The translations under genes were made by a program, and so were the position numbers. The notes beneath the pieces were generated by a model. That model saw only the letters and a program-made list of their open reading frames with translations. It searched no databases and was not told the origin of the DNA. 53,983 nt of DNA from an uncultured Bacilli bacterium (GTDB taxonomy: Bacteria > Bacillota_I > Bacilli_A > RFN20 > CAG-288), in assembly GCA_944332485.1 (NCBI GenBank), contig CALVKB010000004.1, positions 1 through 53,983 on the forward strand, read 5' to 3'. Shown one piece after another: positions 3,310 through 29,129 of this stretch; position 1 is the stretch's first letter; every line of letters begins with the position of its first letter.

Positions 3310-4660
3310 TTATATTGATGAACTTGTCATCTCCACTGGCAAAGGTTTGAATGAGGATGTCGTCAGACAGATATCCAAATTCAAAAATGAACCAGAATGG
3401 ATGTTACAAATAAGACTCGATGCTTTAAAAGAATTTTTAAAACATCCAAATCCAAAATTTGGACCTGATTTAAATTTCATAAATTTCCAAGATTACACTT
3501 ACTATAAGAAGGTTTCTAAGGATGTTGAAAAAAGTTGGGATAATGTTCCAACAAAAGTTAAGGACACCTTTGATAAGTTAGGTTTGCCAGAAGCTGAGCA
3601 AAAATATCTTGCAGGAATCACCACTCAATATGAATCAGAAGCTGTCTATCATAATATGCTTAAAGAGGTCAGTGAGAAAAATGTCATATTCTTAGATACT
3701 GATACTGCCTTAAAACAACACCCTGAGATTTTTAAAAAGTACTTTGGAAAAATAGTGCCTTACACCGATAATAAATACGCCGCATTGAACACAGCTGTTT
3801 GGTCCGGCGGGAGCTTTATTTATGTTCCAAAAGGTGTCATTTTAGATAAACCATTGCAATCATATTTCAGAATCAATTCACAAAGAAGTGGACAATTTGA
3901 AAGAACACTTATTATTGTTGAAGATGAGTCAAGTTTGCATTATGTTGAAGGTTGTACCGCTCCAACTTACTCCTTTGACAGTTTACATGCTGCTATTGTT
4001 GAAATATATGTTGGTAAAAGATCAAAAATGCGTTATTCAACAATTCAAAACTGGTCAACTAACATAATAAACTTAGTGACAAAAAGAGCATTGGTTGAGG
4101 AAGATGGTTTGATGGAATGGGTCGATGGTAATATCGGATCCGGTTTGAATATGAAATACCCATGCTGTGTTTTAAAAGGTGATAGAAGCAAAGGTAGCTG
4201 TATCTCAATTGCTGTTAGCAGCAAGAATCAATATCAAGATGCAGGTGCTAAAATGATACATCTTGGCAAAGAAACAACTTCAAAGATAATCTCAAAATCG
4301 ATTGTCAAAGAAGGTGGTGTTTCAAATTACAGAGGTATAGTTGATATTAAAAGTTCATCTAGCAATTCCAAAGCTCACGTAGAATGTGATACTTTGATTT
4401 TAGATGATATCAGTAAATCAGATACCATTGAAACTAACAACGTAAATAATAACACTTCATTTTTGGAACATGAGGCGAGTGTTAGTAAAATAAGCGAATC
4501 TGATCTTTATTATTTGATGAGTCGTGGATTATCAAAAAAAGAAGCTACTCATCTTATTGTTATGGGATTTATCGAACCATTCAGTTCAGAGTTACCTATG
4601 GAATATGCAGTTGAATTAAATCAATTGATAAAATTGGATATGGAAGGTTCAATTGGATAG
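3281..4660 (+). CDS. sufB: Fe-S cluster assembly scaffold SufB
   Basis: [33 protein letters not shown]. Confidence 0.95.
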
Positions 4661-14686: not shown

Positions 14687-16771
14687 TTATTTCAATAATT
14701 CTATAAGTGATGTTTTATCAATATTGTTGATAGTTAGATCAATGTAGTCTGTTATCAAATCATCAGGATTTGTCTCACTATTTTGTTGTGACATCATCTT
14801 TTTTTGATATTTAACAACATCATCTGTTTTGATGGTTTTTATATTTGCTAATTCTAAAACAGTGTTTAAAGTTAATTTGCTTTGTGCCATTTTTTCCAAC
14901 CCTTTGATAAAAAAGTCGGTATTTATATCGGATTTAGGAACCCTTTCGAAATTAGAAAAAGAAGTATTATCAAAGGTGTATATTAATTTTTTGTCAGGGG
15001 TTAGTTTAGCAATACCAAATATTATTTCTTGTCTATTATCAGTAATCTCAAGATTAAATTTCATCACAATATTATTTGGATTTACTAAACCATTGAAAGT
15101 TTTCAAATTTAATTCATCTTTATTTATTTTATTAAAATTGCACTTTTCAGAAACAGCAAAAAATAAGTTAAATGGAATTTTGAGAACATCGTTTGAAAAC
15201 AAAATATCATTGTACAAATTTAATGCCACTAAAAATGTCTCCTCTTTTTTGCCAGGAGCTAAAGCCATAATTTCAGTTGCACCATTTTTTGCATCTGTCA
15301 TATCGCCACTGAAAGCGACTTTCATATCAGTGTCGTTGATTCTTCTGTAGGAATTTTCTAAATTACACCAGCCGAAATACTGTGAAGCATTGAATAAAGA
15401 AAGGTCTAAATCTACTCTGATTTCTTCAGTTTCTTTTTTACGCTTGATATTGTACCAGCTAACACCTATTTTGAAAGAGTCTGTATTGATGTCAGAGTTG
15501 ACATTTTCAATTTCAAAAGTTGAACCACATGGGATGTTATCTAAAAATTGTTTCTCTGAAGTTGGTAAAGCATATGTCAAATTAGTTGGAATAAAAACTG
15601 TTTTATTTCCAACGTTTTCCTTAACACGTTCAACTATCTCATTTAAAATTTTTTGTTTTATGTTTGTTGCCATATCTTTATTTTTGATTTTGTTGAAATT
15701 CTCGCAGACAAAGCTTTTGTTGTTTCTGATTCTGTAAATTATTGGATCATTCTCATTGTTCAAACGATAATTGAACATGTTGTAAATTTTAATCAATTTA
15801 AAAGTTGTCGCCACTTTAATGTCTGCGTTAATTTTCAACATTGTTTTTTCATCAAAATTTTCTAAAGAGGATAATCTTTCTAATATTGGTGTCTTAAATG
15901 CAGTTTTATTCTTGTCAGCTTTCTTTCTAAGACGATTTATAATTCTGTTTGTTTCTGAGAAAGAATTAGCTTCAGTTTTCAATGCTAAAAATAAAGGTTT
16001 AAATCTTAAAAATATAGAACTAAGTTTATCTTCACCGAATAATCGGATGTAGGTTGAAAGTAAATCTTGAGTTTCATCATAATTGCTTCTTGCTTCTTTT
16101 TTTAAACTTGTGATGGAATCTTTACTTTTTATAAGTAAACTTTTACCTGTCAATCTATAAATTAAGTAGCGTAAAAATTCTTCAGGATTTTCAGGAACCA
16201 ATTTGTATATTATATAAAGACTAGTTTTCACTTCTCTATTTTCGATAGTTTCAATGTAGTTTCTCAAATCAAAAACACAAGCTAAATTTTCGATGTGTGT
16301 AATTGTAGACTGTGAAAGGGCGATGCCGGAATTTAACAATTCCAACATTGCATTGATAATTTGTTTTTGGTCCATTGGTTTTATTATTGTCAAATTTGAA
16401 TTTTCATAATCAAATTTTTGCATTTTACAATTTTCGTTTGGAATAACTGAATTAGCTGTCAAGCCAAAAGCTTCCAACCCATAGGTTGAAAAGTAATGAA
16501 TAAGTTGTTCTTCAACAAGTTGTTCATCAGTTGCATTTAAAATTTTATCCCATGTTTTATGGAAAGTATTACTCAAAAGTGCATTATCAATTCCATACAA
16601 TTTTATGGCGGCTTTAACTACTGATTTTGGTGCATCATTAAAAATAACCACACCTTTTTTTAATGCAGTTTTATCAATTTTATTGTAATCAATTGCATTT
16701 AAGTCTTCACAATAGTAAGCCTTAAAAACCATTAACAAAGCTTGTTTGACAAGATTTCCAATTTTATTCAT
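14687..16771 (-). CDS. 694-aa protein: helical, putatively Ro/TROVE-like N-region plus C-terminal TerD-like domain
   Basis: RBS aaggagag; TerD-like motifs GVSW...RVDLDLSLF and FSGDMTDA..GATE; N-terminal TFHKTW...EQLIHYFSTYG. The Ro-like assignment is inference. Confidence 0.6.
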   Translation of the reverse strand: MNKIGNLVKQALLMVFKAYYCEDLNAIDYNKIDKTALKKGVVIFNDAPKSVVKAAIKLYGIDNALLSNTFHKTWDKILNATDEQLVEEQLIHYFSTYGLEAFGLTANSVIPNENCKMQKFDYENSNLTIIKPMDQKQIINAMLELLNSGIALSQSTITHIENLACVFDLRNYIETIENREVKTSLYIIYKLVPENPEEFLRYLIYRLTGKSLLIKSKDSITSLKKEARSNYDETQDLLSTYIRLFGEDKLSSIFLRFKPLFLALKTEANSFSETNRIINRLRKKADKNKTAFKTPILERLSSLENFDEKTMLKINADIKVATTFKLIKIYNMFNYRLNNENDPIIYRIRNNKSFVCENFNKIKNKDMATNIKQKILNEIVERVKENVGNKTVFIPTNLTYALPTSEKQFLDNIPCGSTFEIENVNSDINTDSFKIGVSWYNIKRKKETEEIRVDLDLSLFNASQYFGWCNLENSYRRINDTDMKVAFSGDMTDAKNGATEIMALAPGKKEETFLVALNLYNDILFSNDVLKIPFNLFFAVSEKCNFNKINKDELNLKTFNGLVNPNNIVMKFNLEITDNRQEIIFGIAKLTPDKKLIYTFDNTSFSNFERVPKSDINTDFFIKGLEKMAQSKLTLNTVLELANIKTIKTDDVVKYQKKMMSQQNSETNPDDLITDYIDLTINNIDKTSLIELLK

Positions 16772-16813
16772 ATTACTCTCCTTTATAAAAATTTGCGTTG
16801 GAAAGTTATTATT

Positions 16814-16887
16814 AAAAAAGACGGTCGAGAAGTAATTTTACTTCTAACTGGTAGAATCTTTGACATGAGGAACTTCATTTGACCGCC
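16814..16887 (-). ncRNA. Putative Y-RNA-like stem-loop or structured leader upstream of the TerD-like gene
   Basis: 5' GGCGGUC pairs with 3' GACCGUC (one G-U, valid on minus strand only); GAAGU/ACUUC inner stem; followed by U6. Confidence 0.55.
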
Positions 16888-16904
16888 AAATTAAATTGCA
16901 ATGC

Positions 16905-16960
16905 TTAACAGAATATACAAATATCAGCAGTTTTGATGTTTGGTATATTCCAACTGTTAA
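16905..16960 (-). other. Second long hairpin at the predicted transcript start
   Basis: TTAACA/TGTTAA, GAATATAC/GTATATTC, AAATATCA/TGATGTTT nested inverted repeats. Confidence 0.55.
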
Positions 16961-16962
16961 TA

Positions 16963-16991
16963 ATTTTAAACACAAAAAAATTTAAATGCAA
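16963..16991 (-). promoter_or_regulatory. SigmaA-type promoter for the ncRNA/TerD-like gene
   Basis: TTGCAT-17 bp-TAAAAT on minus strand; start near 16956. Confidence 0.55.
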
Positions 16992-17322
16992 GTAAAAATT
17001 TTATTTTTTTCAAAAAAATTGTTATTAAACGTAAAGTCCCAAAATTAAGCATTTAATAGGATTTATTATTTATATTTTATATATATGTTAGAGATTTACA
17101 TAGAAAAAAATTAGAGAATAAATTTAAAATTTTTTTAAATTCTTGTTTGTATTTCAAAAATTTTTTAATATTCAGCCTTATTTAACCATGAAAAACACAA
17201 ATTTAAATCAATTTAATAACATATTGAAAAAGTATTTAGACAAAAAAGCTCTATTATCAGAGCTTGATGTTTTTCAAGTTAAATTTAATTTGCATTAAAT
17301 GCTTTGATATATCATGTATCAG

Positions 17323-17426
17323 TGCTACTAATTGAACACCCATTTGCTTGTTTGCTACTGAGTGAATACATTACCTGCGACTGAGTGAACATACACTTTT
17401 TTACAGGTTTTTTACAAATAGTAGCA
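17323..17426. repeat. Cluster of short direct repeats at island left edge
   Basis: tgctactaattgaac (17323), tgctactgagtgaat (17353), tgcgactgagtgaac (17376), inverted agtagca (17420). Confidence 0.6.
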
Positions 17427-17505
17427 TTATTATTACAGAAATATACCAATATTTACAGATTTTGTTGAAAAATGACAGATTTCAACAAAGATGGTGTTTT
17501 TTTAA

Positions 17506-17748
17506 TTAGTCTAAATAAGCTTCAAAATCACCAAATGAGCTGACTTTTTGAAGTTTAACATCTGGGAAAGAAGTAACAATTTGAATCTTAATTGTTTCTT
17601 TAGAAAAAGATCTACTGTTGACGATTTTTACTTTGTAATCTCCAAATGAGTCAACGAATTGAACTTTTAAATCAGGGAAAGAAGTAACAACTTTAAACGT
17701 GACTTTTTTCCCTTTGAACTGAGATAAATAACCTTTACTGTAACCCAT
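17506..17748 (-). CDS. 80-aa tandem-repeat protein resembling the 7_1 (septoil) knot family
   Basis: RBS aaggag; two 37-aa-spaced units VTSFPD.K.Q.V.SFGD; DNA repeat GGGAAAGAAGTAACAA at 17564 and 17675. Confidence 0.7.
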   Translation of the reverse strand: MGYSKGYLSQFKGKKVTFKVVTSFPDLKVQFVDSFGDYKVKIVNSRSFSKETIKIQIVTSFPDVKLQKVSSFGDFEAYLD

Positions 17749-17809
17749 AAATTTCTCCTTTTTAATAAATATATAAAATTAAGTGCACTATTTTATGTAC
17801 ATTAGTGTT

Positions 17810-18908
17810 TTATTTAAAAATCTCATCACCTTTTGTTTGAATTATGTATATCGCTTTCTCAATAAAATAGCTTACTTGTTTTTTAATTTCATCATAGTTT
17901 TGAATATCGACTTTAGGCTCAACTTTTTCGTTCCATGTATCAAAATATTGATAAACCCAGTTTCCTGAATAAGAACATGGATTTTTACTCATTGTGGTAG
18001 GATGTCCAAAGATCTCTCTTTTACTTTTTTTATCAAACGTTTTATCAAACCACTTTTCTTCAAGACCTATTTTAAAGATGTTTTCAACAGGTCCTTTGGT
18101 TAAGCCAAGGAAAAGTCTAAATTGATTGTCTTCGATTTGGACACCGATTTGTCCTTTATAATTGTCTCCACTTCCTTTTTGTAATTCAAAAGAGATTGTT
18201 GATTTGCCGTTGTGGAATGACCTAGAAATATAAAAGGTCCATCCAGGAAGGTCTTTGATCTCGTGTTCCGCTAATAATCTTAATTCTTCACATGTTTGAA
18301 CAAAATCATCAGCTTTGTTTTTTCTAAAAACATCCATTAACCTGACTTTACATAATCCTTATTATATTTTCTGACCAATAAGAAAGGCGACCAGCCGTCT
18401 CTTTTAGAGAAAGGTCCATTAAAATATTGATTGAATCCAAAACTTCGCAGTAATCATGAACAATTGATTTCAAATATTCATTATGAATATCAAGCGTTCT
18501 CAAAAAAGAGGAAATTTCATGATAAGAAATAAAAGACCATTTATCCGGTAATTCAAATGGCGGTTCTTTAATACCCGTAATTACACCTTTTTCTAAATTG
18601 GTTTTTTTACTGTATCTTTCTAGCTGTGAGCGATTAGGGTAAGACTTAATTTTATTCTCAATTACATATTCCTTGCCTTTTGAATATATAACAAGGTCTC
18701 TATTTTTATCTTCTCTCTCAATCTCAGCTTCAGAGTAAACATCGATTTCTTTAAAGAAAAAGGAGATAAGTCCTTTGCATTCTTCCTGTTTCATTAAGTA
18801 AGCCCAAAAATTTGAATGAAACAGCTCTTTTGAACCTAAAGACATAGAAAACACAGGCGATTTTCTAAGCTTCTCAATATTTTCTATAAATAATTGATTA
18901 TTTTCCAT
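17810..18908 (-). pseudogene. PD-(D/E)XK nuclease (PDDEXK_4-like) split by a 1-nt frameshift near 18361
   Basis: SLGSKELFHSNFWAYL, RE...RDLVI, VIENKIKS in 5' ORF; removing one base joins 18348-18908 and 17810-18337 into ~365 aa. Confidence 0.65.
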
Positions 18909-19896
18909 ACTTAGCAATTATCCTTTCTGCTTCTGTTTTTGCTCTTTCAATCAGAGATTGAGGTGATAAAATGGTTACGCACTCGCTGTACTGCATATAC
19001 CAGTAGAACAAAGCACTTTCATTACACTTAATATCAGCATACAACTTACCATCCTTGCTATATGTTCTGGCATTTTTACCAAACCAATCAATAACGAATT
19101 GAACGTAACTTGATTGTTCCAACAAGAATGTAGCTTTAATTACTTTTCCATCTAATAGATAGATATTGTCATTTAAATATTTAGCGATATCAAAATCTTT
19201 TACACCTTCTAATGACTCAATTGGCTTAAGCGGCCATTCATCTTCAATTTTTGGATTAAGCATGTAGTCAATTCTGAACCACGTGATTGCACGATATTTT
19301 TCGCGATAATTGCAAATCAAGAAATAACGCCCATTACTATTAGCTGAATAATACGGAGAAACAATGTAACGATAACCGTCCATTTTGGTGTAAGGTTTTC
19401 CGTTTTCATCAAACGTTAAATATTGGAATGAGAGTCTTTTTCCTCTACGTTTGGCTTCTTCAATCAGTTCTAATGTATAGAATAATTCCTTGTTCTCTGA
19501 ACGATTGATTTCGTTACCTTTATAAATAAAGTTGTAGTCTTCTCTTTGATATCTGCTCAGACACGAGTTGAGTTTTTTAGAGAGTTCGGCTGCTTGCTTA
19601 CCACTAATTGACTTACTAGAAAACAAAGAATCAACAATATATCGAATCTCGCTATTATTAAAACTACGTGATAATAATGCATAGCCACCTCTAGGGGACT
19701 TGTTGATATCGTAGTCCAGTTCCTGTAATAGCGATATAGAAAAAGCTACCGATTTGCGTTCTAATTCGATTCCATACAATTCATCAACTTTATTAATGAT
19801 GTCTTGCTGTGTTAGAAAATGATCCTCATCAGAGTATTCTTCCAACACTTTTAAAATCAATAAAATTGAAGCTTTCTTATTTTCAATCATCAACAT
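18898..19896 (-). CDS. WYL-domain transcriptional regulator (wHTH-WYL-WCX)
   Basis: ILKVLEEYSDEDHFLTQQDI wHTH, LSFQY, VSPY...GRYFLI, FRIDYM, VIDWFG, QYSECVTILSPQSL; start ATG 19896 or 19890. Confidence 0.9.
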   Translation of the reverse strand: MLMIENKKASILLILKVLEEYSDEDHFLTQQDIINKVDELYGIELERKSVAFSISLLQELDYDINKSPRGGYALLSRSFNNSEIRYIVDSLFSSKSISGKQAAELSKKLNSCLSRYQREDYNFIYKGNEINRSENKELFYTLELIEEAKRRGKRLSFQYLTFDENGKPYTKMDGYRYIVSPYYSANSNGRYFLICNYREKYRAITWFRIDYMLNPKIEDEWPLKPIESLEGVKDFDIAKYLNDNIYLLDGKVIKATFLLEQSSYVQFVIDWFGKNARTYSKDGKLYADIKCNESALFYWYMQYSECVTILSPQSLIERAKTEAERIIAKYGK

Positions 19897-19929
19897 AATT
19901 ATAGACCTTAATGCTCGGCATTGCACTGA

Positions 19930-20334
19930 CTACTTATTAACATGGTTCAGCAACAAGCATTTTCCTTTTACTTCTAGCAATTCTATTGATCCATCACTAT
20001 ATTCCACTTCTGTGCAATAATCCTCGTGATCAATCCCCGTTAATTCCTTAATAATTGGAACAGGATCAACATCTTCGCCTTCAAAAAGTGCAATAAATGT
20101 TTCTGGATTATAGTACTCACCATCAACTCTACAGTCATTTAAATCAATATCAACTTGTACTAAATGTTTCTTTTCGTTTTTTTCATACTCTCCTTCAAAT
20201 AAAGAAGAAACGCTACAGTTAGAAAGCCTCGCACAGTGAGCAGCGATCTTAATAAAAGGAATATCAGCATAATCGTTTAATGAATAAGTGGCAAAATCCA
20301 CATATAACCAATTGACATCTCTTGCGGTTCTCAT
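19930..20334 (-). CDS. Hypothetical acidic protein
   Basis: RBS aaggag; operonic between AAA protease and WYL genes. Confidence 0.7.
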   Translation of the reverse strand: MRTARDVNWLYVDFATYSLNDYADIPFIKIAAHCARLSNCSVSSLFEGEYEKNEKKHLVQVDIDLNDCRVDGEYYNPETFIALFEGEDVDPVPIIKELTGIDHEDYCTEVEYSDGSIELLEVKGKCLLLNHVNK

Positions 20335-20344
20335 ATTTTTCTCC

Positions 20345-21646
20345 TTAAGCTAATCCTATAATGTTCAGAACCTCAAACGATTTGAGATTTTTCTTTTTAA
20401 ACAATTTGTCGGCCAATTTGATGAGCAACTTTTTGTTTTTCTTGAGATAGTGTTTTGTTTCTTTTTCGCATCTTTTCAGGAGCTTTTCTATTTCGATTTC
20501 ATTATGACGTCTTCTTTCTTCTGTTTCGTTTCTAATATATGGTTTGACTTCTGGAAGAGTATTAGCGCAAGATAAGAAGCCAACTCTGTTTATGGCTCTT
20601 GCTGCGATTTTATATGCTCTTTGCATATCTGAATCACACCCATCGGATCCTTTTTTAAAAATCAACTTTTCAGCAATTAAGCCTGCACAACTAATTTTTA
20701 TATCGGCGATTAATTTATCATGTGGATTGAACTCTCTATTGTTTTCAACAACAGACAAATATCCACCGTTATTGTTGATTGTTAATCTTCCAATCTTAAA
20801 GAATTCTGAGCAAGCTTTTGTCATTAAGGCGTGGCCAGCTTCATGAACTGCGTGCTGATAGATATCACTGTTACTACTATTTTTTACCTGATTAGTTAAA
20901 TTAAAAATTGAGTCATAGATCATTTCTGAAGTTATATTTTCAAAACCATTTGTAAGAAAAACTTCATTAACAATTGATTTAATCGTTGCACAAGGCACAT
21001 CATCTAAAGCTAATTCAAACTCTTCATTAACAAAATCAGATGGAAGAGTAACTCCAAGATCTTTAAAAAGCTTTTTAAGCAATAAAACTGCTTCTTTTCC
21101 TGTAGGAGATGGAATTCTTAAAACTTTTTCAAGGCGTCCACTTCTCATTAAAGGCTCAGGAATTTCATAAATATGATTGGTAGCACATAAAACCAAAATG
21201 TCAGATTCAGAACTAACACCATCGAGGTTATCTTGTAGGACTCTTTCAGCTCTACTGTCCTTGCCAATAAGAAGATCTAATTCATCAATCACAATAACAA
21301 CATGTCCTGTTTCTTTAGCTTTTTTGAACATTTCTTCTAATCCTTCAGAAACATTGTCCATGTCACCTCTAAAGACAAATGTCGGTGCCTCAGCATATTT
21401 AATTGTTTCTTTTATTAATAAAGACTTGCCATTGCCTGGATCACCATACATAAGAATGCCTCGAGGAATATCAACTCCTCTTTTTTTGTATTCCTTTGAT
21501 TCTTTAAACCATTTCAAAACCGAGATTAAGACTTCTTTTTGCTTTTGATGGCCAATTACCTTTCCTAAGGGTTCTTCAGAATCATTAACCTTTTGAGCAG
21601 GAATCAAATCATATGGTAATGTCTTTTTAATATCAATTTCTTCCAT
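20345..21646 (-). CDS. Soluble FtsH-like AAA ATPase / M41 zinc metalloprotease (no TM anchor)
   Basis: RGILMYGDPGNGKS, VIVIDELD, ATNH...LMRSGRLE, HEAGH, GLIAEK, GCDSD. Confidence 0.85.
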   Translation of the reverse strand: MEEIDIKKTLPYDLIPAQKVNDSEEPLGKVIGHQKQKEVLISVLKWFKESKEYKKRGVDIPRGILMYGDPGNGKSLLIKETIKYAEAPTFVFRGDMDNVSEGLEEMFKKAKETGHVVIVIDELDLLIGKDSRAERVLQDNLDGVSSESDILVLCATNHIYEIPEPLMRSGRLEKVLRIPSPTGKEAVLLLKKLFKDLGVTLPSDFVNEEFELALDDVPCATIKSIVNEVFLTNGFENITSEMIYDSIFNLTNQVKNSSNSDIYQHAVHEAGHALMTKACSEFFKIGRLTINNNGGYLSVVENNREFNPHDKLIADIKISCAGLIAEKLIFKKGSDGCDSDMQRAYKIAARAINRVGFLSCANTLPEVKPYIRNETEERRRHNEIEIEKLLKRCEKETKHYLKKNKKLLIKLADKLFKKKNLKSFEVLNIIGLA

Positions 21647-21654
21647 AAAACTAA

Positions 21655-22299
21655 TTACTCCTCTTCTTCGTTGGTAACCTTTTTATTTGGTTTCTTTTTA
21701 TTAATTCCTTTGTCGTATTGTTTGCAATCTTGGATGATTTTATCCTTTTCTTGAGGAGAATAATCCATAAACATGAATGTTTCTGGGTTAGTACTTTCTA
21801 AGTAATTGAATGTCCTTGCAAAAAGTATTGAAATCATTCTTCGTACATTAGGTGATTTATTGTTTGAGGTTCCTTCCACTATTGATTTGAGAAAAACATG
21901 ATCTTCATCTTCTTTTTCGTGGAACTCAAAATAGCCATTCTCCCTATCATAAGCTCTGTTTAAACCATGTTTTCTGGTATTAAGACAAAATCTTTTTCCC
22001 TCAAATTCTTTATAGATGCCATTGTAATAAGACAATAAGTTGTTGTAATTATCATTTACATGAAACTCATTTTTATCTGGACTAATAAAGACATCAATTG
22101 TTCCTATTTGGTTGTGAAGACCATACATTAAATGTGTTGCATCATTGAATTCACGAATTAATTTGTTTTGGAACAACTCTTCGTATTTACTCTGTATAAC
22201 TTCTGGATCTTCCGAATAATTATTCTTTTTTTCAACATTCCATATACCATTTCTTACATTAGCAATCCATGTCATTATTGTTTCAAATTTGAATTTCAT
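21655..22299 (-). CDS. Hypothetical protein, first gene of the protease-WYL operon
   Basis: RBS gaggt; 214-aa ORF, 8 nt upstream of the AAA gene. Confidence 0.7.
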   Translation of the reverse strand: MKFKFETIMTWIANVRNGIWNVEKKNNYSEDPEVIQSKYEELFQNKLIREFNDATHLMYGLHNQIGTIDVFISPDKNEFHVNDNYNNLLSYYNGIYKEFEGKRFCLNTRKHGLNRAYDRENGYFEFHEKEDEDHVFLKSIVEGTSNNKSPNVRRMISILFARTFNYLESTNPETFMFMDYSPQEKDKIIQDCKQYDKGINKKKPNKKVTNEEEE

Positions 22300-22387
22300 T
22301 TTTCTTACCTCGCACCATTATGATACAAAGACCAATGTCCGTTTTTCCGTGCATAGCAAAAAGTACTATAATTGCGAGGAAACAAAG

Positions 22388-22625
22388 ATGAAAAACATTA
22401 AAAACTATGTTATATCAGCCAATATTGATGAAAAAATGAATAAAATTGTTTTAGAAATTAAAAAAAATACGTACAGGTATGTACGAAATTAAGGATTGGG
22501 ATTCATGTGTCGAAACTGCTTTTTTGATTCTAGATAAGATTCTAGAAAACGGCTTAACACCATTAATGTTGGATACATTTATCGAATCATTTTCAAGAAA
22601 CGAAAAAACTAGTTTTGATGCCTAA
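22388..22625 (+). pseudogene. Small divergent gene (~78 aa) interrupted in an A8 run
   Basis: RBS gagg, ATG 22388; A7 instead of A8 at 22460-22467 gives MKNIK...KIRTGMYEIKDWDSCVETAFLILDKILE...FDA*. Confidence 0.45.
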
Positions 22626-23083
22626 AAATATATGATTTGTATTTTTCTTTTATTGTTGAGTATGCTTTTTTGACCGCAGTAGCGGATTTATTAGTTGCTC
22701 TCCCTATTCCTCTAAGAGAAATGTAAGGATTTTTCAGTCTAAACGACAAATAGAACAACTGCTTTTCTGATAGTGTTTTTAAAAAAGCCTCTGCACTCCT
22801 ATCTTCTTCTTGCCAATTTAGAGCATCGTCCACTTTTTCTGAAGAAGCAAGTATGAGCCCTTCAAAATTAAAAGCATCCATTGAAAGACAGTGATATCGA
22901 TTTCTTCTTAACATAGTCAATTCTTGCTTAACGTCATTCGACAAACATAAGAAACCATTCGGCTTTCGTATCTTCAGGATAGTATCTGGTTCTTTTTCCA
23001 TTCTCTAAACGCCATTCAATTCCAATAGGTTCTTTTGTTGTTTTGTTTCTTAGTATTTTTACCCCAGCATAATAATCAATCAT
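22609..23083 (-). pseudogene. Sigma-70 region-4-like HTH protein of mobile-element type, frameshifted near 22935
   Basis: AAAGGAGG RBS before ATG 23083; 49-aa ORF stops at 22934; second frame carries RRNRYHCLSMDA..EG and LSEKQ...SLRGIGRATNKSATAV. Confidence 0.6.
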
Positions 23084-23158
23084 TTCACATCCTCCTTTAA
23101 TTGAATATTACAATGAAAAAGCCCACTACTCAGTTTTTCAACTTTTCATGGGCAATAA

Positions 23159-24604
23159 TTATGCTTTGCTTTCTTCTTTGGTTAAGCGTTCCATTATTTT
23201 CTGGAAAGCTCCTTCGTAGATTCTCTTAATGCCGTTATATTCAACAGTAAGTTGTTCAAGAGTCATGCTGGTGTAGTCTTTTTTCAAATGAGCAGAGCTT
23301 TCCTTAATAAAGTCGTTTAATTGTTTATAGACTAAATCCTTTGTTTTGAGGCTCTTCATCTTTTCTCTTACACCAGAATTCATGATTTCACCAACCATCA
23401 TATTCATCTGATTGATCATGTTCTCACGCTCAGTAATGTAAGTTCTGACTTTAATTGCATCAGCTTCCGACAAAGCGTTCTTGTCAACTTGTAGAAGTTC
23501 GTCAATCGAATAGTTAAGACTATTGTCTATCTTATAAAGATAGTTGATATGGATTGGAGTTGCAAACTTCTTCATTGAAAGCAGCGCTTCCTTAGACCAG
23601 CCTTTCTCAAAGCCGTTCTTAATTAACGAAAGCCCAACTTCAGCAAGTTCCTTAGAATCTTTTCTGTTGAGAACATATTCCACTACTTTTTTAGCGGTCT
23701 CATCTGATACAGCTAATAAGATTCTCACCAAAGATCTTGTTTTGTATTCATTAATCCAGCCTTTAGATAGCAATTGTTCGATAGCTTCTTCGCATCTGGC
23801 TGAGTTAGATTTAACAAAGTCATATTTGCTTTCTTTGAAGAAATAGATTCCAAACACATTAATAACGCTTGTGACTTTAATATATTCATTAAAAATCGAA
23901 CCTAAGTTGTTATCTTTATCTTTGAAGATGAATCTCTCTTTTAGCATTGCATTAAGAACGGTTTGAGATAAAGCATTCCATTGGCCACCAGTTATTTCGC
24001 TAGTAATTTCGCAAGGATAAGCTGAAATATTCATGCTTTGGCCTTTGTAGACTTTATCAAACTCTTCTTTGTCGATTGGAAGGAACTTATTGTCATCTAA
24101 ATTAACAACTATTCTTTCTTCAGAGAAGATAGCATCATATACATCTCTCTTGGTTGTACCTGGTTCGCTTTCAAAGCTGATGTCCAAGAAGGTGGAATTC
24201 TCATCTTTTGGCATCATGAATTGCTTAAGCAATTCTTGATTATCAAAGAGGTTTCCTTCAAAGACCTTGTTTCTAAATCTAGAAGCATTAAACATCTCGT
24301 AATACTTGAAGTGATCAGAAACCATCATAGTTACTGGATATAAGGAATTTTCGATAATTCCATCAATTTGACTTTCTGTGAATTCAGAAATTTCCTTATA
24401 TAGTCTCTTGAAGTGTGAATTAAGAGAACCTTGGCCACAGATTTCTTCAATATAATCGAATGCTTCTTTTTTGGTTTTAGCATTCTTGATTAATGAAGCC
24501 ACTAAATATGAATCGTATGTCGCTTTTTGATAAGTATCATAACGAAGCATTACTTTGTAAAAGGTATTAGGCAAGCTTAGAGCCACTCTTGCTTTGATTT
24601 CCAT
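23159..24604 (-). CDS. Hypothetical 481-aa partner of the helicase
   Basis: Overlaps helicase 3' end by 38 nt, own RBS aaggag; helical/coiled-coil C-terminus. Confidence 0.8.
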   Translation of the reverse strand: MEIKARVALSLPNTFYKVMLRYDTYQKATYDSYLVASLIKNAKTKKEAFDYIEEICGQGSLNSHFKRLYKEISEFTESQIDGIIENSLYPVTMMVSDHFKYYEMFNASRFRNKVFEGNLFDNQELLKQFMMPKDENSTFLDISFESEPGTTKRDVYDAIFSEERIVVNLDDNKFLPIDKEEFDKVYKGQSMNISAYPCEITSEITGGQWNALSQTVLNAMLKERFIFKDKDNNLGSIFNEYIKVTSVINVFGIYFFKESKYDFVKSNSARCEEAIEQLLSKGWINEYKTRSLVRILLAVSDETAKKVVEYVLNRKDSKELAEVGLSLIKNGFEKGWSKEALLSMKKFATPIHINYLYKIDNSLNYSIDELLQVDKNALSEADAIKVRTYITERENMINQMNMMVGEIMNSGVREKMKSLKTKDLVYKQLNDFIKESSAHLKKDYTSMTLEQLTVEYNGIKRIYEGAFQKIMERLTKEESKA

Positions 24605-27071
24605 AATCGATTTCTCCTTCTTTATATCTAATCATCTTTCCTGCTGAGGAAATGTATTCAATGATGTCTTTGAAATAGTGCCTATCCATTCCACCACTGA
24701 TTTTCATGTTGATTTTGCTTAAAGTGATCTTATTTCCGAAAACAATGAGTTTGTCTCTTGAACGAGACATGGAAACATTGATTCTTCTAAAATCGTTTAA
24801 GAAGTTTCTTTGAGTTGCATCAGTAACAACTGTATTGACAAGAACAACATCACATTCTTTCCCCTGAAAAGCATCCACGGTATCAATATCAAATGATTTG
24901 AATAACTTTTTAGCTTCATTGATTAGAGCTATGTTGTTCTTTTGGAAGTGATTAATTTGAGCAGCATATGGGAAGATAGCAGCAACAGACATCTTCTCTG
25001 GATTAATCGCTGTTTTCATTAAATCTTTCAATATAGCAACAGTTGCGTTGATTTCTTGGACATTGAATCTAGAAGTTCCGTCTTTTGTTTCTTGACCACC
25101 TAACACTTCAACAAAAACTGCATCTTTGTCTTCAAATGCTGGGTTAGTGAAATGAACTTTTTCAGGCCTAACTTCTTCTCTTCTTCCAATAAGCTCACCG
25201 TTATAGAACATGTTATAACATGTAAGGACTTGCTTAACTGATCGATAATTCTCATTTAAGAGCACTAATCTATTACTTTCTTTAGCTTTGGATAAAACCT
25301 TGGCGAAGACTGATTGTTCATACATGGCTTGCATTTTTTCAAACATATCTTCGTCATAGCTTGGGAGCTCTTTGACATCATCTTTTGTAAATTCAAGGAG
25401 AGGAGCTAATTGGAAGTCATCACCAACCATGATGATTCTGCTTACATATGGAAGATATCTGAGAACTTCTGTAATTGGGCATTTACTGACTTCATCAATA
25501 ATAAGCCAGTCATAGCCCTTAAGAGTTTCAAGGCCTTTCTTACCAGCGATAGCACTTGTTGTGGTTGTAGCTCCGATAACTGAGAATTCGCTATCAACTT
25601 CCTCAGAATATCTGAATCTAAACTCACCATTAAAGTTAGCCATAGAAAGAGCCATCTTCTCTTTTAACTTTTTATTGGTCGATCTTTCATTATGAGCAAG
25701 GAACTTTCTGCCCCATGTTTTATATAAGGTTTCATCGATGTATTCTTTTGAATACTTGTTACGTCTATTGGTAATTCTATTAGGAATAATAAGGTCATTA
25801 TTCTCCATCAACTTATCCAAAACATTGTCAATAGCGATGTGGGTTTGAGAAGAGATAATAACTTTTTCGCCTAATTCCTTTGTAATGTATTGAGTAATCG
25901 CATTAATGACATGCGTTTTACCTGTTCCTGGTGGCCCTTTAATAAGACTGACAGGAGAGCCATCTATTGCCATCAAGAAGGCTTTTCTCTGTGATTCATT
26001 TAAGCCTTCCATGTACTTCTCTTTAGTCCTTGAAGTTCTAGAGACATGGTTAGGCATTTTTGTGTCGCCAATTAAGTATTCCAATAACTCTGAAGCTGCA
26101 CCTGTGGCACCTTGATTGATTAATCTTAAAGAGTTATCGATGGACTCAATTTTGATTTTTTGGCCCATATCATAAAGGTTTAGATATGAATAGTCTTCTT
26201 CGTAATCAGCAGAGGACTTCATTTCTCCAGAAAGGATAACTTCGTCTTTGACGATTCTGATGTTAACTAATAAGAATTGTTTAAGGTTTTTAGCGGCAGC
26301 TTCAGTAACAAAGTTATAGTTACTTAAGTAAATGTTGTCATCACCACATCTTTTAATTCTTGCGAGAACTTCCATACCACCTTCAATGTGTACGTCTATG
26401 AGTTCTCTGACCTTATCTTTAATGTCGTTGCTTAAGGTGTCGTATTGAGTAACGTCAAATTTGTAGCCTTTAATGACTCCGTTTTGGTCCTTTACTTCTT
26501 GCTTGAAGTCAGAATCAAACTCTTTAACATCAGCAGGAACAAAGAAGTAAGACTCCGTTTTACTGACTACAGGATATGTAATATTGTTGTTGAGTTCGTC
26601 AGATAACTTCTTATAGAAGTTGAATATTTCCATGAACTCATCAAATTGACCGATATTATATTCAAATTCGTTTGAGTTAGCTAAGATATTTAATGCTTCT
26701 CTAGTTTGGTCTATTTTCATTGGAGGATAACCAGCATAAACGAATTTAGTTCTAGTTAATACACCTTTAAGTGTTTTGAAATCTGTTTCTTCTTCAAACA
26801 CCTTTTTAACGAAGAACATTCCGCCAAACGGAGGTCTGAAATCGCATTGAAGGTTTCCAACAAATCCAACTATTCCGCCACCTTTTCTTTCGTAACATAA
26901 TTTCACGTTGTCGATAGATTTTATGAATCTAGCATCTTTCGCATCGAATTTGATGGTCTTTTTGTTGGTGTTGATTTTGACATCATGATAAGTGTCATCT
27001 CTTAATTGTCTAATCCACTCTTGATCGAAATCCGGGAATGAATCTAATTTAAGTTCAAGTGCTAATGCCAT
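24567..27071 (-). CDS. Superfamily-1 Upf1/DNA2/NAM7-like helicase (AAA_11/AAA_12) with ~350-aa unknown N-terminus
   Basis: LNESQ, GPPGTGKT, SQTHIAIDN, IIDEVSK, VGDDFQLAP, NYRS, TVDAFQGKE, RRINVSMSRSR; RBS aggaggagg. Confidence 0.92.
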   Translation of the reverse strand: MALALELKLDSFPDFDQEWIRQLRDDTYHDVKINTNKKTIKFDAKDARFIKSIDNVKLCYERKGGGIVGFVGNLQCDFRPPFGGMFFVKKVFEEETDFKTLKGVLTRTKFVYAGYPPMKIDQTREALNILANSNEFEYNIGQFDEFMEIFNFYKKLSDELNNNITYPVVSKTESYFFVPADVKEFDSDFKQEVKDQNGVIKGYKFDVTQYDTLSNDIKDKVRELIDVHIEGGMEVLARIKRCGDDNIYLSNYNFVTEAAAKNLKQFLLVNIRIVKDEVILSGEMKSSADYEEDYSYLNLYDMGQKIKIESIDNSLRLINQGATGAASELLEYLIGDTKMPNHVSRTSRTKEKYMEGLNESQRKAFLMAIDGSPVSLIKGPPGTGKTHVINAITQYITKELGEKVIISSQTHIAIDNVLDKLMENNDLIIPNRITNRRNKYSKEYIDETLYKTWGRKFLAHNERSTNKKLKEKMALSMANFNGEFRFRYSEEVDSEFSVIGATTTTSAIAGKKGLETLKGYDWLIIDEVSKCPITEVLRYLPYVSRIIMVGDDFQLAPLLEFTKDDVKELPSYDEDMFEKMQAMYEQSVFAKVLSKAKESNRLVLLNENYRSVKQVLTCYNMFYNGELIGRREEVRPEKVHFTNPAFEDKDAVFVEVLGGQETKDGTSRFNVQEINATVAILKDLMKTAINPEKMSVAAIFPYAAQINHFQKNNIALINEAKKLFKSFDIDTVDAFQGKECDVVLVNTVVTDATQRNFLNDFRRINVSMSRSRDKLIVFGNKITLSKINMKISGGMDRHYFKDIIEYISSAGKMIRYKEGEIDYGNQSKSGSKLA

Positions 27072-27085
27072 GTTTCTACCTCCTC

Positions 27086-27504
27086 CTAGTAAGCTAATGC
27101 AGCTTCGTAATTTCTCATTGAATATAAAGCTTCTGTATAGATAATTTTGTTCTTTTTCATTTTGTATTTAACTGTGTAATCTCTGTCTTTTTTACTAACT
27201 TTGCGAGGTTCTTCATAGCAGACAATCGATTCATCTATGTATATACATAGTTTTTCTTGCTCCTGCTTAGAACCAACCTTGAAGTAAGGATCATTCTTAT
27301 TGATTTCCTTCAGTTCAAGATGCTCTTCCTCAGAGATATTTCTAACATCAATATTTGCATCCTTCCTATGATGTTTGACTCGTGGCATCCATCTAACCTT
27401 TTCAGTGTTTCTCTTCCGTTCTCTGCATAAACTGGGATGGTCTTAGGAATGTATTTTCCGCTACCAACGTGTCCAAATTGAGCTGTAACTGCATAATGTT
27501 CCAT
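27086..27504 (-). pseudogene. Conserved-hypothetical small protein (~139 aa) split by a 1-nt deletion near 27405
   Basis: RBS aaggag; adding one base gives ...GHVGSGKYIP...AENGRET-AEKVRWMPRVKHHRKDA...NDPYF, a pattern I recognise from Firmicute hypotheticals. Confidence 0.65.
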
Positions 27505-27830
27505 GTACGTGAATCTCCTTTAACGAAAGCAGAAGACGTACTATAACCAAAATATAAAATTTTAAATCAGTTAATCTTACAGTCAGAAATAGTACGTCCC
27601 GACGTACTACAGGTAATTATCAATCCTACTCAGATCTTTTCAGACCTTTTTGGTTGGAACCATAACGTGGTTTCCTTCGTTCGCAATTTCATTAAATCAA
27701 AAAAAAAAGTAACTGTCAAACGTTTTTGTGAAGCGAGTTCAGTTACATGAAGTAATTTTTTTGAGGTGGGGCACATACCTGTAGTGTTGCGAACGAAGGA
27801 TCTGCACCCCGAAGTATTCACGTTCGCAGT
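27505..27830 (-). promoter_or_regulatory. Highly structured ~330-nt leader with mutually exclusive pairings
   Basis: 14-bp IR 27673-86/27787-800, 10-bp IR 27606-15/27776-85, 9-bp IR 27590-98/27601-09, terminator-like stem plus U10; TATAAT at 27835-27840. Confidence 0.6.
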
Positions 27831-27879
27831 TATTATTATAAATAATTTATTGCGCCTGATAAAGAAAAAATCTCTGTTT

Positions 27880-27929
27880 GTTATTTACCATATTCAATGC
27901 TTAGTTTTGCATTAAATATGGTAAATAAC
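27880..27929. repeat. 50-bp palindrome (21-bp arms), second copy of the dispersed repeat
   Basis: GTTATTTACCATATTcAATGC-ttagtttt-GCATTaAATATGGTAAATAAC. Confidence 0.8.
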
Positions 27930-27939
27930 TTGAAACAAT

Positions 27940-28203
27940 ATGGTTAAAAAAAGATCTATGTCTAAAAAGGGATGTTCCCCAGACAATTCAATTTGTGAAG
28001 GATTCTTTGGAACAATTAAAAATGAGTTCATTTATCCAAATAATTGGAAATATACAACATGCGATGATTTTATTACTGAATTAGAAAAATATCTAAATTG
28101 GTTTAAAAATAAACGAATTAAGAAAAGATTAGGATATTTATCGCCAACACAATTTATGTAAAATTATAATCAATATTAGTCCAAAAAAATATCCGCATCC
28201 CCA
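27940..28203 (+). mobile_element. IS3-family remnant: transposase C-terminal fragment plus right end
   Basis: SMSKKGCSPDNSICEGFFGTIKNE...RIKKRLGYLSP; followed by gtccaaaaaaatatccgcatcccCA. Confidence 0.85.
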
Positions 28204-28401
28204 AAACTACCATTTGAGATTGACATTTACAAAAAATGTCCAATTTCTCAAACAAATATTATTTTTTGATACAGAGTATCAAAATATAAACTTCATTGTG
28301 TGCAATTTAATAAAAATATGCAAAGTACAATTTATAACATATACATTAAAGGGTTAGCGAAAACTTAATAGTCAACTAACCCTATTTTGTAAAGCGAGCA
28401 T

Positions 28402-28722
28402 TTAAAAATCAACGTTGATTTTGTTATCAAGTACATAGCTACCGTCATTTACAGCATTTAATTTATGTATTAAATCACTGATTAACTCATTCAAAGAATT
28501 TTTGTTTTCAGCTGCTCTTTGATAATTAAATGAGCATGCACTCGTTCCGTCAAAATCATAAAACGAACTATAAAGCGATGAGATTCTATCATTTAATTTA
28601 TTTATTGCTTCATTTTCGTCGACTTGAGGAACGCCTGTAACAAGAGTTCCTTTACTAATACTGAAAACATCTTTAACAATTGGTCCAATCATAAAGTCTA
28701 ATTCAAGTTTAATAGTTTTCAT
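28402..28722 (-). CDS. Conserved hypothetical protein (106 aa)
   Basis: RBS gaggag; IKLELDF..GPI, YSSFYDFD, LNAVNDGSY; downstream hairpin AGGGTTAG/CTAACCCT. Confidence 0.75.
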   Translation of the reverse strand: MKTIKLELDFMIGPIVKDVFSISKGTLVTGVPQVDENEAINKLNDRISSLYSSFYDFDGTSACSFNYQRAAENKNSLNELISDLIHKLNAVNDGSYVLDNKINVDF

Positions 28723-29129
28723 TTTCTTTTCTCCTCACACTTATATTTTAATTTTTTGAAGTGTGTGGTATAAAAAAGTGTTACCTAATCACTTCATTGA
28801 ATATTTTTTTGCATTTGCACCTTTTTATTCAATGAACTTATATCATTTATTATATATATCGCCAATACCCATTGAATATTTTGTTGTATCTGTATGTTTT
28901 TATTCAGCGATATTTTCTAGTTTTTCAAATATTTCGGCTGTATTAAGGCAATAGATAAATGCATGAGCAATCGTTGTTTTATAGGGTCAATCGTTGGAGT
29001 ATCGATTATAAATCACCAAATTTTAGAGTGTTCAATGGTTCGAATGTCATCGAACGAAACAAAAACTTTAATTTTATGTACTAAATATAAAAAATGATAT
29101 TTTTACGTATCACTCTTATTGTTTACTAA

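Follow-up and report, generated by a model that had tools for sequence, protein, structure and literature searches.

Small antisense RNAs encoded upstream of, and on the same strand as, the genes they control have been described in phages and satellite phages. The CI RNA of satellite phage P4 belongs to the Rfam C4 antisense RNA family, and the c4 RNA of phages P1 and P7 masks the ribosome-binding site (RBS) of icd. Citron and Schuster reportedly described, in 1990, two short complementary segments and specificity differences between P1 and P7 that arise from matched changes. To our knowledge, most P4/P1-type immunity circuits that consist of RNA only have come from phages of proteobacteria and their satellites. 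In the cited passages on P4, the CI RNA pairs with an upstream sequence (seqA) and a downstream sequence (seqC) and stops transcription of the replication genes (PMC4825925). The C4 antisense RNA is stated, in the part of the source cited, to regulate ant expression in P1 and P7 (PMC8201110). Passages on the Gifsy-1 prophage describe IsrK, a leader made in two forms, of which the short one, ended by termination, changes the fold of the long, read-through one in trans (PMC4825925). In this study, we analyzed a window of 53,983 nucleotides (nt) from an uncultured Bacilli bacterium (assembly GCA_944332485.1, contig CALVKB010000004.1, positions 1 to 53,983). A conserved non-coding module of about 270 nt was found on the minus strand, upstream of a defence-like helicase operon. 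The module is an undescribed RNA element; its layout is known from P4 and is, as far as is known, new for this bacterial group. We consider it moderately probable that the module is an antisense-RNA control element composed of two tandem minus-strand transcription units, in which a small RNA (RNA-1) pairs with the leader of the operon messenger RNA (mRNA; RNA-2).

The first predicted unit starts at promoter P1 (27835-27862; TTATCA at 27862-57, a 16-nt spacer and TATAAT at 27840-35, with 10 of 12 consensus matches), which places the RNA-1 start at about 27829-27827. The 5′ copy, a5 (UGCGAACG, 27821-27828), is complementary to part of the antisense core, mid (UCCUUCGUUCGCAA, 27787-27800), giving helix H1. 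Hairpin H2 (27768-27810) is formed by GGGGUGCA (27810-03) and UGUGCCCC (27775-68), and its 27-nt loop presents mid together with a second antisense segment, H4a (ACUACAGGUA, 27776-27785). The unit would end at T1 (27699-27746), a stem of GUAACUG (27746-40) and CAGUUAC (27715-09) followed by U10 (27708-27699), so that RNA-1, from a5 to T1, has a predicted length of about 130 nt in the window. The second predicted unit starts at promoter P2 (27691-27719; TTGACA at 27719-14, a 17-nt spacer, TTTAAT at 27696-91 and TG at 27699-98), which overlaps the 3′ arm and U run of T1. Its start is expected at about 27686-27684, and the predicted 5′ end of the operon mRNA is therefore exactly a3 (UUGCGAACGAAGGA, 27673-27686). 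The inverted repeat of mid and a3 (27787-27800 and 27673-27686) is perfect over 14 nt, and mid can pair alternatively with a5 (H1) or with a3 (H3). A second target site, H4b (UACCUGUAGU, 27606-27615), lies about 70 nt beyond a3 in the leader and is complementary to H4a (helix H4). All of the elements listed in a preliminary description of this DNA (the TATAAT box, repeats, stem, helices and a short open reading frame, ORF) are present on the minus strand where they had been placed.

Homologues of the module were collected by BLAST, by a scan for two fixed motifs and by a search with the helicase; distant members were probably missed, and because of this mode of collection both the breadth of the family and its linkage to the helicase are biased to close relatives. 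BLAST against related genomes returned two homologues, one 74% identical (same family) and one 70% identical (another family). The module was present in three of 401 genomes of the order, including that of the window, and its distribution is therefore sporadic. The two-motif scan returned seven loci in genome_contigs, 22 in metagenome_contigs and none in viral_contigs, and two additional copies (L050 and L051) came from searching at class level with the helicase. In total, 32 further loci carry the module (uncultured Bacilli/RF39-like, Izemoplasmatales and similar). The carriers are labelled Ca. Enterosoma, Bacilli/Bacillales metagenome-assembled genomes and Izemoplasmatales, and two bins are labelled Phocaeicola and Lachnospiraceae. 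Twenty-six full-length copies were aligned (alignment A1), leaving out L050, L051 and four pattern loci cut by contig ends.

The preliminary description had proposed long-range and alternative pairings (of 14, 8 and 10 bp) and a terminator stem, and had suggested that they be checked by covariation in homologous leaders. In the 26 copies all long-range and local helices, as well as the terminator stem, were found to co-vary. For H3 and H4 together, 93.4% of the cells were paired, with double changes at 13 of 25 pairs (slid controls, 31-52%). For H1, H2 and H5 together with two leader hairpins, Ha and Hb, 93.5% were paired, with double changes at 16 of 33 pairs (slid controls, 31-47%). None of 500 shuffles was as good in either set, a count that is not a probability because the sequences are related; firmer evidence comes from the slid controls and from how many distinct pair types occur. 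H1 (8-12 bp) is kept in 26 of 26 copies, with 96.4% of cells paired and double changes at four of nine pairs; its mean energy is -13.8 kcal/mol for cognate and -8.3 kcal/mol for non-cognate partners. H2 is likewise kept in all 26 (98.4% paired, double changes at three of seven pairs). H3 is 12-16 bp long in 26/26 copies (95.7% paired, 6/14 pairs with double changes) and is also selected by RNAalifold. H4 (27776-85 with 27606-15) reaches 10-14 bp in 23/26 copies and is weak in L024, L028 and L045; 90.5% of its cells are paired, with double changes at 7/11 pairs. H5 (82.9% paired, double changes at three of five pairs) lies with H4 in a region where A1 is misaligned for six divergent copies, which lowers the pairing figures there.

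The three segments a5, mid and a3 change in step in all 26 copies, with cores such as GCGAAC, GCGAGA, GCGCAA, GCACAA, GCGUAA, GCGGAA and GUACGA, among others. Cognate a5:mid and mid:a3 duplexes are 5-8 kcal/mol better than non-cognate ones. The decisive observation is that the pairings have been kept via compensatory changes in 25 other full-length homologues, which places them beyond chance. Helix mismatches comprise 102 G.U against 24 A.C, an excess that points away from double-stranded sites and towards RNA, or else single-stranded DNA, of this strand.

The 338-nt stretch that contains the module folds at -88 kcal/mol, compared with -70.0 ± 4.4 kcal/mol for 100 shuffles (z = -4.06, no shuffle equal). 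In the minimum-energy fold of the whole stretch H3 is formed. The module is present in a single copy in its own 1.13-Mb, 52-contig assembly, as judged by BLAST. No other site in this assembly matches the 14-mer with zero or one mismatch, and four sites match with two mismatches; a reversed control pattern gave nine sites in all. An Rfam scan (cmscan) of positions 26500-29000 at E ≤ 10 returned only microRNA and small nucleolar RNA noise, and in eight homologous loci at E ≤ 0.1 a transfer RNA (tRNA) alone was matched, with no match to the module. The element had been called undescribed and no Infernal hit had been expected; both statements held. No description of the module was found in the literature searched (listings, abstracts and cited passages).

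The signals that would delimit the two units are conserved along with the helices. In 26/26 copies a sigma-70-type promoter of the P1 type is present with its end 6-8 nt ahead of the a5 GCG, against a background of 0.0082 sites per position, and many copies have an extended TG (alignment read by eye). A hairpin with a U run between H2 and a3 was returned by the scan for each of the 26 copies. Fourteen are tight stems (6-12 bp, loops of 4-15 nt), eight are of the window type, with loops of 22-29 nt that contain the -35 box, and four are weak stems of 5-6 bp. T1 is the predicted terminator of RNA-1, overlapped by the conserved internal promoter P2. By a strict rule, and against the same background, P2, mostly TTGACA-17-TAnnnT, is present in 22 of the 26 copies, with a distance of 6 nt (5 nt in L030) between its end and the a3 GCG; for P1 and P2 alike the usual distance is 6 nt. 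Four copies are excluded solely by a T at the second -10 base (TTTAAT), namely the window, L034, L038 and L036, the near-twin of the window. In L025, L026, L040 and L047 the full promoter is retained downstream of a separate, tight T1 hairpin. Since the promoter follows a separate terminator in copies of the L025 type too, its hexamers are not conserved merely as part of a stem. H3 ends 0-3 nt upstream of the predicted P2 start G (5-6 nt below the -10 box) in all 26 copies. The conservation of a promoter inside or just after a terminator points to two tandem transcription units, and the single leader of the preliminary description is probably to be replaced by these. Inspection of A1 by eye also showed a short UUAC...GUAA hairpin (27740-27757, minus strand) that shares nucleotides with the T1 5′ arm and has the same sequence as the T1 3′ arm. 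L019, L020, L027, L030, L034, L039 and L041 have this hairpin at the same place, with 4 bp, or 7 bp in L030 and L034. It could be an antiterminator for RNA-1.

The closest described layout is that of P4. In both cases a small antisense RNA, here a predicted one, comes from the strand of the genes under its control and from a position ahead of them, and its core is complementary to an upstream and a downstream copy, as far as the cited passages describe the P4 system. The order a5-mid-a3 mirrors seqA-CI(seqB)-seqC and is kept in 26/26 copies with matched changes. There are several differences. The P4 CI RNA is cut from a long leader transcript, whereas RNA-1 has its own terminator and its target has its own promoter; the conservation of T1 and P2 suggests termination and separate initiation rather than processing. 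The module has a second, unrelated target site (H4), and its host is an AT-rich Bacilli lineage, not an enterobacterium. The cargo is a defence-like helicase operon in place of replication genes, and premature termination, the output in P4, is one candidate output here. No similarity of sequence or model was found in Rfam. In addition, the P4-type element sits in a phage or satellite immunity region, whereas no phage family was found among the ORFs at 7.1-38.8 kb and no locus in viral_contigs; integrase and replication families were also absent from the ORFs scanned in that interval.

The c4 RNA of the P1/P7 immI operon resembles RNA-1 as a same-strand, upstream-encoded antisense RNA controlling downstream genes of its own operon. 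The matched specificity changes reported for P1 and P7 would resemble the specificity variants of the module. The main target of RNA-1 differs, being the 5′ end of an mRNA about 165 nt upstream of the RBS; the module has no Rfam C4 match, and no phage genes were recognized around it. IsrK has one promoter and two isoforms, whereas the module has a conserved second promoter; the two are not homologous. The module resembles attenuators and riboswitches in that its leader combines a terminator with helices that exclude one another. However, the exclusive helices H1 and H3 share no strand with T1, whose 5′ arm is overlapped by the short UUAC...GUAA hairpin, no known aptamer is present, and a promoter lies in or next to the terminator. 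The earlier suggestion of a riboswitch gained no support for ligand sensing, and no anti-terminator sharing a strand with the big repeats was found. No conserved small ORF, as would be looked for in a type I toxin-antitoxin system, was found in the module.

The leader of RNA-2 contains further conserved structure. Hairpin Ha (27656-27675; GGAAACCA with UGGUUCC) overlaps a3 by 3 nt at its base and shows double changes at all five core pairs (e.g., A-U in 11 copies and G-C in 10). The variable hairpin Hb (27624-27653) is clamped by two fixed motifs, CCAAAAAGGU and UCUGAGUAGGA. Hb is 100% paired, its sole free pair (234-260) being U-A in 14 copies and C-G in 11. The letters of both motifs were required by the search patterns in all 25 homologues, so A1 cannot prove their invariance; L050 and L051, found via the helicase and not by the pattern, carry CCAAAAAGGU and AUCUGAGUAGGAA. 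The position of the motifs, facing each other across Hb, suggests a bound factor. A UAGGAUUAUU-like motif recurs about 45-50 nt after the constant UCUGAGUAGGA in the leaders of L019, L022, L029 and L034, and is absent from the window; in L019 the recurrence is an exact 11-nt repeat, AGGAUUAUUAG. U-rich hairpins were seen by eye in some RNA-2 leaders. Two further pairings were considered and dropped, as the partners do not change together in A1 read by eye: RNA-1 ACCUUUGGGUG with leader CACCCAAAAAGGU, and RNA-1 AAUCCU with AGGAUU of the constant motif.

Ha also covers a seven-codon ORF (MVPTKKV, 27640-27663), which had been proposed as part of the switch. The ORF is present in the window (27663-27640), but an ATG at this place was found in only 3/26 copies (another ATG in 4/26, none in 19/26), and the hairpin that harbours it co-varies as RNA. 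The frame is not kept, because the loop length of Hb varies, and a leader peptide was therefore rejected. No conserved ORF was found anywhere in the module among the 26 copies, where the longest stop-free stretches vary in place and frame. Hairpin H5 (27590-27609; UAGUACGUC with GACGUACUA) overlaps H4b by 4 nt. Together with a third copy it forms a GACGTACTA triple of GACGUACUA-type copies (27590-98, 27601-09 and 27535-43), the second module of the preliminary description. All of these copies are present in the window, but the third, GUACGUC, copy beats shuffles as an alternative partner of the H5 3′ arm in only 7/21 leaders, from two subfamilies (at about -42 from the AUG in most). A possible RBS-masking hairpin (27502-27543) would comprise the third copy UAGUACGUC (27543-35), the anti-Shine-Dalgarno sequence UCUUCU (27536-31), the Shine-Dalgarno sequence AAGGAG (27520-15) and the AUG (27504-02). 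Judged by its occurrence among the leaders, this third-copy arrangement is subfamily-specific.

These features can be combined in a model of antisense control. P1 would yield the small RNA-1, in which the H2 loop would display mid and H4a, and P2 would yield the operon mRNA, opening with the 14 nt of a3, which complement mid perfectly. The complementarity of mid with a3 and of H4a with H4b implies pairing of RNA-1 with the messenger leader, predicted to occur at the extreme 5′ end and at the internal site. Both predicted RNAs would begin with the same 8-9 nt. The shorter target copy a5 would be a weaker, internal competitor, pairing with mid when the target is unbound, and may serve for self-masking or as a protective 5′ stem of RNA-1. 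In transcripts that read through from P1, the same pairings could form in cis. The outcome might be repression of a costly defence-like operon, with mRNA 5′-end stability, early termination and, in the subfamily of the window, RBS masking as candidate outputs. Masking would involve GUACG..UCUUCU and AGGAGA..CGUAC, and the H5 3′ arm would be the alternative partner. The signals, the co-variation and the linkage are observed; we infer the production of both RNAs, their pairing in trans and an effect of this pairing in setting operon expression.

Several observations weigh against this model. The P2 -10 box of the window is poor (TTTAAT) and the T1 loop is 24 nt long, so that read-through from P1 may be substantial in this copy. 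H2 and H4 share 3-5 nt in most copies, and H3 and H4 cross, which prevents them from stacking into a single helix. Blocking a3 and H4b in the folding model gave no consistent change of RBS accessibility in 18 leaders. The RNA-library evidence consists of assembled contigs, and transcript ends, levels and strand are beyond its reach. Contigs of libraries X1 and X2, from a relative at 94-95% identity, are unbroken over 27102-27840 and continue upstream into unlike sequence. Either DNA or read-through RNA may be their source, and one long transcript would account for them equally well. The only contigs of a bovine-gut metatranscriptome sample (runs X3 and X4) in the region cover 27489-27670 and 27519-27669, at 99% identity and without loose ends. 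Both fall within the leader predicted for RNA-2, their upper ends being 15-16 nt below the expected P2 start, and nothing upstream of 27670 is covered; in contrast to the other points, this is a weak hint in favour of the model. Finally, G147, one of four helicase-bearing genomes in the class-level sample, has no module within 1.5 kb upstream of the helicase.

It is possible, although we regard it as doubtful, that the module is instead a single cis-acting leader that starts at P1 and reads through T1, in which a folding cascade sets termination at T1 or exposure of the RBS and P2 is a basal promoter. Such a cascade would be served by the sharing of mid between H1 and H3 and by the overlaps of H2 with H4 and of H4 with H5, and in the minimum-energy fold of the 338 nt H3 is accompanied by pairing of the H5 3′ arm with the third copy. 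The long loop of T1 and the weak -10 box of P2 in the window, the X1 and X2 contigs that cover the whole region, and the UUAC...GUAA hairpin, which by eye competes for the T1 5′ arm in the subfamily of the window, point the same way. However, P2 keeps its hexamers, its 17-nt spacing and a P1-like distance to the repeat even where T1 is separate (L025, L026, L040 and L047), H3 stops at the predicted P2 start, and the third copy takes part in only 7/21 leaders. H1 and H3 leave the T1 stem free and so provide no classical terminator/antiterminator link. Cis action is, moreover, compatible with pairing in trans, since P4 uses these pairings on transcripts that are still being made. It is very improbable that the repeats are DNA sites, whether repressor operators at the +1 positions of both promoters, sites of recombination, or the 14-bp inverted ends of a promoter segment that can invert. 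Two direct copies do lie equidistant from two promoters with an inverted copy between them, and remains of an insertion sequence (IS) lie just upstream. Yet seven separate helices co-vary, beyond the repeat alone, and their lengths differ among copies (8-12 against 12-16 bp); the ratio of 102 G.U to 24 A.C is not expected for double-stranded sites. The orientation is the same in all 32 homologous loci and in the RNA-library contigs, no joints were seen, and the multi-copy IS ends lie outside the module.

Two further possibilities assign the RNA a part in the helicase system itself. That the RNA is a working part of this system, with the constant loop binding the helicase, its partner or a ligand and the RNA-1:RNA-2 duplex serving as a substrate or sensor that triggers the system when infection disturbs it, seems to us improbable. 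In its favour, module and helicase stay together although the operon's first gene is exchanged, the helicase belongs to the RNA helicase-like Upf1/IGHMBP2 kind, and L050 and L051, which were found via the helicase, also have both motifs. On the other hand, the binding is a prediction only, the constancy of the motifs is partly built in by the pattern scans, the G147 homologue has no module, and in L019 the module persists without the operon. We think it unlikely that the RNA pair is the sensing part of a new helicase-based defence system switched on by loss or remodelling of the duplex on phage infection. If it were, RNA-1 bound at the 5′ end of the operon RNA and the constant loop would form a ribonucleoprotein with the helicase or partner, the trigger would be transcription shut-off, a phage RNase or the helicase itself, and the co-varying address GCGNAAC would prevent cross-talk of co-resident systems.

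Under antisense control, as favoured above, copy/anti-copy/copy logic would have a second home in a sequence family of no relation, carried by small-genome Bacilli of gut and rumen that are uncultured. This three-part logic would be joined to a candidate defence operon with an Upf1/IGHMBP2-like helicase and exchangeable first genes. With about 270 nt, two promoters and one terminator, the module is a compact, testable model and could show how costly defence operons are restrained by RNA. The at least nine distinct addresses among the 26 copies would be naturally orthogonal antisense/target pairs. The module would also add a structured-RNA family to the catalogue.

The position ahead of a helicase operon, noted in the preliminary description, is conserved. 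A homologue of the 834-amino-acid (aa) helicase was found downstream of the module, within about 0.5-1.6 kb, in 23 of the 29 pattern loci. Five of the six loci without it have at most 1.6 kb of downstream DNA and the sixth (L019) is degenerate, so the helicase follows in 23 of the 24 pattern loci with enough downstream DNA. The homologues are 40-99% identical over the aligned part, and 45-71% identical in long matches, L036 aside. In L019 (the same sequence as L010, 1-1300) an AT-rich module follows a GC-rich gene that is RNA-methyltransferase-like by our reading of the translation; a truncated, C-terminal hsdR-like type I restriction gene (our own reading) comes next, leaving a remnant without helicase. 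By ORF reading, the neighbours of the module in other loci are of defence type.

The first gene of the operon (27086-27504, minus strand) encodes a small basic "KFGHVGRN" protein and is frameshifted in the window into frames of 64 and 100 aa. The near-identical relative L036 has an intact protein of 139 aa, and the contigs of relatives have one extra base at 27405 or 27408; the window gene is therefore a frameshifted pseudogene or an assembly error. The first gene is exchangeable, being a "KFGHVGRN" protein of 139-155 aa, a protein of about 470 aa (weak PIN match), a 121-aa protein, a radical-SAM protein or an exonuclease-like protein, and in L050 no gene lies between module and helicase. No family was found for the "KFGHVGRN" protein in Pfam, NCBIfam or PADLOC. 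For the L036 protein (L036:2464-2880, minus strand; 12 homologues, alignment A2), the predicted fold (predicted local distance difference test score 88) consists of an N-terminal beta-alpha-beta unit followed by helices. The best PDB rows in a fold search were of the archaeal ribosomal LX/eL20 kind, a weak match (E 0.12, probability 0.97, 56-63 columns). The modelled fold gives a weak hint of possible RNA binding.

The helicase (24567-27071, minus strand) is a superfamily 1 protein with Pfam AAA_11 and AAA_12 domains and is Upf1/IGHMBP2-like. It matched PADLOC MkoA at 3.2e-76 over the core only (profile positions 543-1099 of 1112), and NCBIfam IGHMBP2 and the PLuB helicase below cut-off. A partner protein of 481 aa (23159-24604, minus strand) is conserved cargo, present downstream in the three loci whose DNA extends to that position. 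It has no family in PADLOC, Pfam or NCBIfam, and an Atlas search gave no usable match. A Mokosh (MkoA/MkoB) system is not indicated, as the helicase matches in its core only and the partner has no match to a phospholipase D nuclease family. The operon continues with a helix-turn-helix-like protein (one weak Pfam match, below cut-off), a soluble FtsH-like AAA+/M41 protein, IetA/IteA-like (20345-21646, minus strand), a PD-(D/E)XK protein (18348-18917, minus strand) and several unknown proteins. The whole gene run (14687-27504, minus strand) is mostly without families and is flanked by housekeeping genes (ATP-binding cassette transporters, an FGGY kinase and ribosomal protein L3).

Upstream, the module starts just inside an IS junction. 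At 27880-27929 the left and right IS termini are joined without an interior, as a 21-nt inverted repeat (95% complementary, 8 nt apart), and the multi-copy IS ends stop here, outside the module. A 34-nt piece (27898-27931), the terminal repeat of a multi-copy IS, recurs at 22 other places of the assembly; at 12 of these it falls in the first 81 bases of a contig. A 73-aa ORF (27940-28161, plus strand) is a C-terminal fragment of an IS3-type transposase (rve_2, 5.8e-12), the N-terminal part of which is missing where the RNA module and operon begin. In L025 the module is preceded, at a distance of about 200 nt, by a tRNA gene of the same strand (4419-4506, minus strand; 54 bits), as expected of an island inserted beside a tRNA gene. 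The IS terminus GTTATTTATCATATTTAATGCAAAACTAAGC... is also present at the start of the contig from which the window was taken.

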